A DNA stretch of 64,000 bases from Escherichia coli (GTDB lineage: Bacteria > Pseudomonadota > Gammaproteobacteria > Enterobacterales > Enterobacteriaceae): NCBI RefSeq assembly GCF_044647545.1, contig NZ_CP172818.1; one strand, written 5' to 3'. Made by a program: the position numbers and the translations under genes. Shown one piece after another: positions 29,582 through 29,612 of this stretch. The number at the start of each line of letters is the position of its first letter. Positions within the stretch are counted from its first letter, which is position 1. The notes below the pieces were generated by a model. That model saw only the letters and a list, made by a program, of their open reading frames with translations, had not been told where the DNA came from and did no database searches.

Positions 29582-29612
29582 AAATTTACTTAATTCAAGA
29601 TTAAGTAAATTT
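29582..29612. promoter_or_regulatory. 12-bp-arm perfect inverted repeat in the AT-rich yadN upstream region; candidate regulator binding site
   Basis: aaatttacttaa-ttcaaga-ttaagtaaattt read directly, about 180 nt upstream of yadN start. Confidence 0.4.

Follow-up and report, generated by a model that had tools for sequence, protein, structure and literature searches.

Yad fimbriae are linked to bloodstream infection by ExPEC and are induced by serum through a counter-silencing mechanism (PMC13245861). The locus analysed here raises the question of whether a long palindrome upstream of the Yad operon has a role in that control, and of what kind. It lies in a 64-kb stretch of Escherichia coli DNA, hereafter the window, in which pcnB, folK and yadN are all encoded on the minus strand. 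A sequence-only reading had described it as a perfect inverted repeat with 12-bp arms in the yadN upstream region, about 180 nt 5′ of the first fimbrial gene. The position agrees, the dyad lying 176–210 nt upstream of the yadN ATG, and positions 29582–29612 read aaatttacttaa-ttcaaga-ttaagtaaattt, letter for letter as first noted. The sequence and coordinates were thus correct but the repeat was understated: the true perfect arms are 15 nt long, TTAAATTTACTTAAT and ATTAAGTAAATTTAA, and they flank a 5-nt TCAAG spacer, giving a dyad of 35 bp overall. An optional outer extension, TGAAC/GTTCA, adds five further pairs and is confined to the window, K-12 and B1 group. A still bigger palindrome of about 75 nt (TGCAC...GTGCA) was dropped, as its outer modules are conserved nowhere beyond the window/K-12 group.

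Gene coordinates (see the table) follow the annotation of RefSeq record NZ_CP033850, which is 100% identical, and the folK-yadN spacer is 100% identical to that of E. coli strain FDAARGOS_497. The mechanically called yadN reading frame begins 24 nt further upstream, with an ATG at 29428, than the annotated gene, which starts at 29404. The annotation seems correct here, because AAGGA precedes its ATG and the surrounding sequence is conserved in all allele classes.

Coordinates of the dyad, its parts and the flanking genes in the window
Feature	Position	Strand	Remark
yadN, major subunit gene, first in the Yad chaperone-usher fimbrial operon	28820–29404	−	RefSeq annotation
folK-yadN intergenic region, 370 nt, 27% GC, holding the putative yadN promoter	29405–29774	−	H-NS-bound K-12 'promoter island' 156927_379
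TGAAC, optional outer extension	29572–29576	none	pairs with GTTCA 29615–29619 across an AAA bulge
Left arm, TTAAATTTACTTAAT	29580–29594	none	the earlier 12-nt arm is 29582–29593
Dyad spacer, TCAAG	29595–29599	none	lineage-variable
Right arm, ATTAAGTAAATTTAA	29600–29614	none	contains TTAAGTAAA
GTTCA, outer-extension partner	29615–29619	none	from folding
folK, final gene of the pcnB-folK unit, upstream and co-directional	29775–30254	−	transcripts run towards the dyad

The dyad is real and beyond chance. Among the perfect inverted repeats of the window it is the longest, the runners-up having 12-nt arms and being G+C-rich; the remaining repeats with arms of at least 10 nt are also G+C-rich, with the sole exception of a 10-nt A+T-only dyad adjoining the folK stop codon. 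Arms of 15 nt arose in none of 5000 dinucleotide-preserving shuffles of the 27%-GC spacer, and arms of 12 nt in 0.2% of them, while the analytic expectation of 15-nt arms in the 370-nt folK-yadN spacer is 6e-5. It is this absence from all 5000 shuffles, together with the low expectation, that marks the dyad as non-random.

The second perfect A+T-only dyad, at 29750–29772, reads TATTTATATT-CGT-AATATAAATA and directly follows the folK stop codon; on the folK-sense strand it is followed by AUUUUCUG. Its partner at 29763–29772 is not conserved in the B2, AGR and PEC422 classes, and that hairpin is therefore limited to the window/K-12 group. The best-conserved stretch of the entire spacer, TTTTCAGAAAATATTTATATTC (29739–29760), lies 15–36 nt 3′ of the folK stop codon. 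It follows the pattern TTTTCrGrAnnTATTTATATTC, the final 11 bases being invariant in every variant that covers the block, and contains TATAAAT in the yadN sense. To either side of this block, even right next to the folK stop codon, the sequence diverges among allele classes.

The palindrome is not part of a dispersed family. A search for further copies, which the sequence-only reading had proposed, found arm copies elsewhere in the 64-kb window at chance level only, and across 3006 genomes the dyad occupies one locus per genome, the probe returning two 'places' because a palindrome matches on either strand. Metagenomes scanned for the perfect dyad yielded three contigs, all in the folK-yadN context. 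With a single copy per genome, a repetitive palindromic element of the REP/BIME, ERIC or MITE-end type is ruled out.

Comparison across E. coli places the dyad in an unusually variable setting. We aligned 18 spacer variants (loci L001–L020) taken from 5426 complete E. coli genomes, in 4623 of which yadN was found. The spacer falls into very old allele classes, between which yadN DNA identity is 76–100% and spacer identity reaches down to about 47%, a pattern that suggests long-term diversifying selection plus recombination at the locus. Some classes are mosaic, as in L021, where a str144-like spacer is joined to a YadN that is window-like (92% protein identity). Insertion sequences are also found here: in two loci (L004 and L005) IS1 adjoins folK and the yad operon is wholly or mostly deleted up to panB, and in another (L013) ISApl1 interrupts the spacer about 300 nt 5′ of yadN.

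The dyad itself occurs in perfect, partial and lost forms. The window type has 15 perfect pairs, and the sole variation seen in it is a G to T change in the dyad spacer. The PEC422 type also has 15 perfect pairs and the same arm sequence, with another, 7-nt spacer and diverged flanks. The B2 types (MS21199, Nissle/UTI89/CFT073 and APEC17) have 13–14 perfect pairs built from different arms, GTTAATTTTACTAA/TTAGTAAAATTAAC and relatives; compared with the window, two positions are changed on both arms (A-T to T-A and T-A to A-T), and the outermost pair varies among B2 variants as T-A, T.C or G-C. In the K-12 type the left arm is identical to that of the window and the right arm carries TT to AA at 29610–29611, leaving 13 of 15 pairs and a 10-bp perfect core. 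The B1 type (RM10042) combines the K-12-type change with one pair altered on both sides to a T.C mismatch, its left arm differing from the window by A to T at 29588, and retains 12 of 15 pairs and a 6-bp core. In the AGR4587/U12A (ST131-like) and str144/C9 types a 10-nt deletion adjoins the left arm, and CTTAA/TTAAG or ACTTAA/TTAAGT is left. Dyad spacers also differ between lineages, with TCAAT, TCAAA and, in the PEC422 and B2 types, unrelated sequences of 7–9 nt.

The perfect form is a minority allele. A 41-nt dyad probe matched 107 genomes identically and 56 with one mismatch, so that the window form accounts for 163 of 5426 genomes (3%); the same probe identified 1267 K-12-like genomes and 1576 that are B1- or PEC422-like. 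Counted by spacer, 561 genomes are of B2 type, 1233 belong to the AGR/str144 family and 44–71 are of PEC422 type. If the sampled representatives typify their classes, perfect arms of at least 13 bp are present in roughly one-sixth of yad-carrying genomes. The K-12, B1, ST131 and str144 types, which make up the majority of these genomes, have 2–7 unpaired arm positions, and the predicted hairpin energy falls off from −11 kcal/mol in the window to −7 in K-12, −3 in B1 and −1.5 to −5 in AGR/str144. The expectation that the dyad is conserved among strains carrying the operon is thus borne out in part. It holds for a core footprint and for perfect 13–15-bp arms in three deep classes; it does not hold for the perfect dyad of the window, the form in most yad-carriers being degraded.

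That core is visible across the deep divergence of the locus. Among 10 deep variants, the two arms rank third and fifth of all 15-column segments of the spacer by conservation. Arm identity to the window is 28/28 in the PEC422 type, against 64% for the rest of the spacer (P = 4e-6), 23/28 against 53% in the B2 types and 21/28 against 48% in the str144 type, while the sequence between the arms diverges freely among deep classes. Within the A/B1 lineages, on the other hand, the arms show no such slowing (26/28 and 24/28, against 90–91% for the remaining spacer). By this alignment the arms appear to be constrained between deep classes and not within A/B1 lineages. The most conserved part of the dyad over all allele classes is TTAAGTAAA, and a core of ACTTAA-N7-TTAAGT is kept in all classes but the B2 types, which have the mirrored ACTAA/TTAGT. 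We read the core ACTTAA-N7-TTAAGTAAA as a phylogenetic footprint. Its right arm, TTAAG(T/C)AAAA, stays conserved even where the 10-nt deletion has removed the outer left arm.

Published work places this footprint in silenced promoter DNA. The yadN/folK spacer appears in Table 1 of a survey of K-12 promoter islands, which number 78, and is described there by dense promoter-like signals, association with H-NS and a flanking horizontally acquired gene (Panyukov and Ozoline 2013, PMC3661553). At ChIP resolution, H-NS covers the yadN region in three K-12 data sets as well as in CFT073, and no other protein has so far been demonstrated there. H-NS represses the Yad operon, and serum induces it, in both CFT073 and EC958. 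A CFT073 PyadN-lux fragment of roughly 200 bp is active as a promoter, responds to serum by induction and is held down about 100-fold by H-NS. That construct was made with the primer CTTAATTTTTTAAAGTTAATTTTAC, whose annealing site lies 14 nt upstream of the B2 dyad and takes in the dyad's distal arm; the fragment ends 24 nt before the yadN ATG. The active piece of about 200 bp therefore begins essentially at the homologous dyad, and the dyad lies upstream of the promoter or at its edge, not deep in the mRNA leader. EC958 (ST131), judged by its check primer, has the AGR-type spacer with a 5-bp core only; since it keeps both H-NS repression and serum induction, the extended dyad is unnecessary for either.

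Several other inputs to yadN have been reported. SlyA overproduction raises yadN 2.4-fold, LmiA does not bind PyadN, and earlier K-12 work described effects of ArcA and of temperature on yad. Natural non-coding variants upstream of yadN alter expression, as found by GWAS and a reporter assay (bioRxiv 2025.06.10.658842). A Reg-Seq preprint names yadN as a gene, without a result for it, and the idea of an off-target site of C.Csp231I was dropped, yadN being merely a Tn5 insertion site in that work. The dyad itself appears to be previously undescribed: a literature search on its sequence returned as sole match an unrelated sulA primer, and the terms 'palindrom' and 'inverted repeat' occur 0 times in PMC3661553.

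Scans of the spacer for promoter consensus, run on four allele classes, found on the yadN-sense strand no promoter-like site common to the classes. The top sigma-70-like match in the spacer, at 29652–29681 on the plus strand (TTGATA-16/18-TATATT/TATTAT, 10/12), faces away from yadN, antisense into the folK 3′ end, and is present in K-12 too; the yadN-sense strand of the spacer has no comparable match. A match of this kind fits a spacer that has been published as a 'promoter island'. Closer to the promoter than the dyad, about 110–125 nt upstream of the yadN ATG, GTAAATTTTGGTAAC (29513–29527, minus strand) matches the CpxR consensus GTAAA-N5-GTAAA at 9 of 10 positions. This candidate CpxR site sits in a block conserved across all classes, as GTAAn-N5-GTAAn in B2 and PEC422 and as GTTAAATTCAGTAAA in the AGR type, and a 13/15 match to the Lrp consensus at 29515–29529 overlaps it.

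The sequence-only reading had also entertained a switch element, an idea that is not supported. A phase-variable element, whether invertible like fimS or governed by Dam and Lrp as in pap, has on its side only the general precedent of switches in fimbrial operons. The arms lie 5 nt apart, however, which leaves nothing to invert, and the spacer's other inverted repeats are short and imperfect. The strain comparison for inversion that had been proposed found all 18 variants collinear. Between folK and yadN there is no open reading frame of at least 40 aa save overlaps of the flanking genes, and thus no recombinase or PapI/PapB-like frame or other regulator gene; 29405–29774 contains no GATC; and the best match to the Lrp consensus is 11/15 in the dyad against 13/15 elsewhere in the spacer. 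Yad fimbriae are, moreover, stated not to be phase-variable. We consider a switch of either type extremely improbable, and an ordinary regulatory DNA site the most likely identity of the dyad.

Our preferred reading, which we hold tentatively at a probability of about 0.4, is that the dyad is a conserved palindromic protein-binding site, its symmetry differing by lineage, at the upstream border of the yadN promoter that H-NS silences. A candidate protein, either a dimeric regulator or a nucleoid protein, would bind the core ACTTAA-N7-TTAAGTAAA(A) symmetrically, and the bound dyad would tune the silencing or counter-silencing of the Yad operon. The perfect 15-bp symmetry would then be a lineage-specific state of a quasi-palindrome whose outer arms change in mirror fashion or decay from lineage to lineage. 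Both the binding of a protein to the dyad and its effect on yadN transcription are what we infer from the footprint and its position. Since the right arm persists where the outer left arm has been lost, recognition of sequence fits better than pairing alone. On the other hand, the interpretation of the arms as protein half-sites is weakened by the mirrored substitutions, which pairing or templated mutation predicts and a protein half-site does not. The consensus sequences of SlyA, IHF, Lrp, ArcA, CRP, Fis, NarL, RcsAB and CpxR gave no convincing match in the dyad. For H-NS itself, the arms match the binding template at 7 of 10 positions, as do about 20 other spacer positions equally well or better, and a matrix built from 11 published H-NS sites places no dyad position in its top ten, the best arm-overlapping one (29588–29597) ranking 11th.

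Mutation alone offers a possible, if doubtful, alternative, in which the dyad is a quasi-palindrome of no function of its own that arose in very AT-rich DNA covered by H-NS, is intermittently perfected by intramolecular template switching during replication and decays elsewhere. Because template switching uses one arm as the template for the other, mirrored changes would appear with no need for selection; such quasi-palindrome mutagenesis is reportedly captured by the Ripley model, by the thyA and lacZ reporters of the Lovett laboratory and by the analysis of Monttinen and Loytynoja in 2022. The difference between K-12 (AA) and the window (TT) affects adjacent bases of one arm, as a single templated correction would, and mirrored changes are seen in the B2 types. 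Neutrality would also allow for the degraded dyads of most genomes (1267 of K-12-like, about 1500 of B1-like and about 1200 of AGR/str144-like type), whose folding energies are −1.5 to −7 kcal/mol as against −11, for the B1 type, where one pair was altered on both sides yet left unpaired, and for the arms of the A/B1 lineages, which evolve no slower than their flanks. Templated correction leaves unexplained, however, why the same arm sequence recurs across lineages whose flanks are 36–52% diverged. Furthermore, a probe joining synthetic K-12 flanks to the perfect dyad found the perfected form in 0 of about 1360 genomes with K-12-type flanks, so that frequent recurrent correction is not seen. 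The independent events are few and may have run in either direction; a YadN-based scan for outgroups, at one genome per species, returned one E. coli locus only.

Alternatively, it could be the pairing of the arms that is selected, either in a supercoiling-responsive DNA cruciform or in an RNA hairpin within read-through transcripts from pcnB-folK, the latter acting as an insulator, 3′-end stabiliser or weak terminator between the housekeeping and the silent fimbrial operon; taken jointly, we regard these two versions as unlikely. Over the alignment, 79% of cells are paired and five pairs are changed on both sides, column pair 192/204 being T-A in 12 rows, A-T in 5 and never unpaired. The covariation score was matched by none of 500 shuffles, which ignore the relatedness of the variants, and exceeds that of every slid register; no more than two or three evolutionary events underlie the compensated pairs. 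Three deep classes carry perfect 13–15-bp arms with differing sequences and loops, and folding is stable at −13.3 kcal/mol as single-strand DNA and −17 to −20 kcal/mol as RNA (z-scores −4.8 to −8). With 15-bp arms, a 5-nt loop, 11% GC (89% A+T) and AT-rich flanks, the dyad has the sequence features expected of a cruciform and is comparable to the classical cruciform of ColE1 (13-bp arms, 5-nt loop). Against selection on pairing stands its loss in most yad-carrying genomes.

The RNA version draws further on the UUUGUU that follows the hairpin on the folK-sense strand in this strain, and on a spacer that lacks a canonical terminator anywhere. That tail, however, is found only in the window/K-12/B1 group, the other perfect-arm classes having TTGCTC, TTCCAT and ATTGCA at the same place. 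We reject an intrinsic terminator: a single one of the 15 stem pairs is G-C, and scans of four allele classes returned 0 terminator-like sites. yadN goes up when Rho is inhibited by bicyclomycin, a sign that the insulation depends on Rho and is not intrinsic. A search of Rfam 15 at permissive E-values gave no match beyond four chance-level hits to eukaryotic or plastid families (E = 4–9). The boldest form of the structural account, a compensatorily maintained cruciform or read-through hairpin in the H-NS-bound island that insulates the Yad operon or gates its counter-silencing, its perfect, partial and lost versions producing strain differences in Yad inducibility, strikes us as improbable.

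On balance, the palindrome is probably a modest regulatory site; it is neither a terminator nor a new kind of element. The dyad is unsurprising in kind, as most strains manage without the perfect form, and AT-rich palindromes are common in H-NS-bound promoters. It is nevertheless one of few segments conserved in a promoter region that has otherwise diverged extremely, and its naturally occurring perfect, partial and lost versions make it a cheap and well-defined target in the search for the missing regulator or for the source of strain differences in Yad expression.

Comparison with known systems helps to place the element. As a hairpin 3′ of folK followed, in this strain, by UUUGUU, it resembles Rho-independent terminators, and it differs from them in its near-pure A-U stem, its unconserved tail and its lack of a match in the terminator scan. 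Like quasi-palindrome mutation hotspots, it shows an imperfect form in K-12 and a perfect one in the window, the two differing by a pair of clustered bases for which the other arm could serve as template, but unlike them it shows no recurrent conversion among about 1360 K-12-type genomes. H-NS is not known to require dyad symmetry. Its high-affinity nucleation motif has a central TpA and reads tCG(a/t)TA(a/t)ATT (Lang et al. 2007, PMC2094087). Both arms bear, in inverted orientation, TTAAATT, which fits the A/T core of that motif, in a region bound by H-NS in vivo, although the arms miss the CG step. With respect to promoter islands as described (PMC3661553), the dyad differs in being a discrete conserved element within the island. 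A parallel in layout is offered by the SlyA operators of H-NS-silenced fimB, which PMC3173223 places 167–194 bp upstream of the start site, where they counteract H-NS. The dyad lacks a TTA-N6-TAA site and its symmetry is far longer than a typical pair of operator half-sites, yet it shares with these operators the arrangement of an AT-rich site about 100–200 bp upstream of a fimbrial gene, within a region bound by H-NS.
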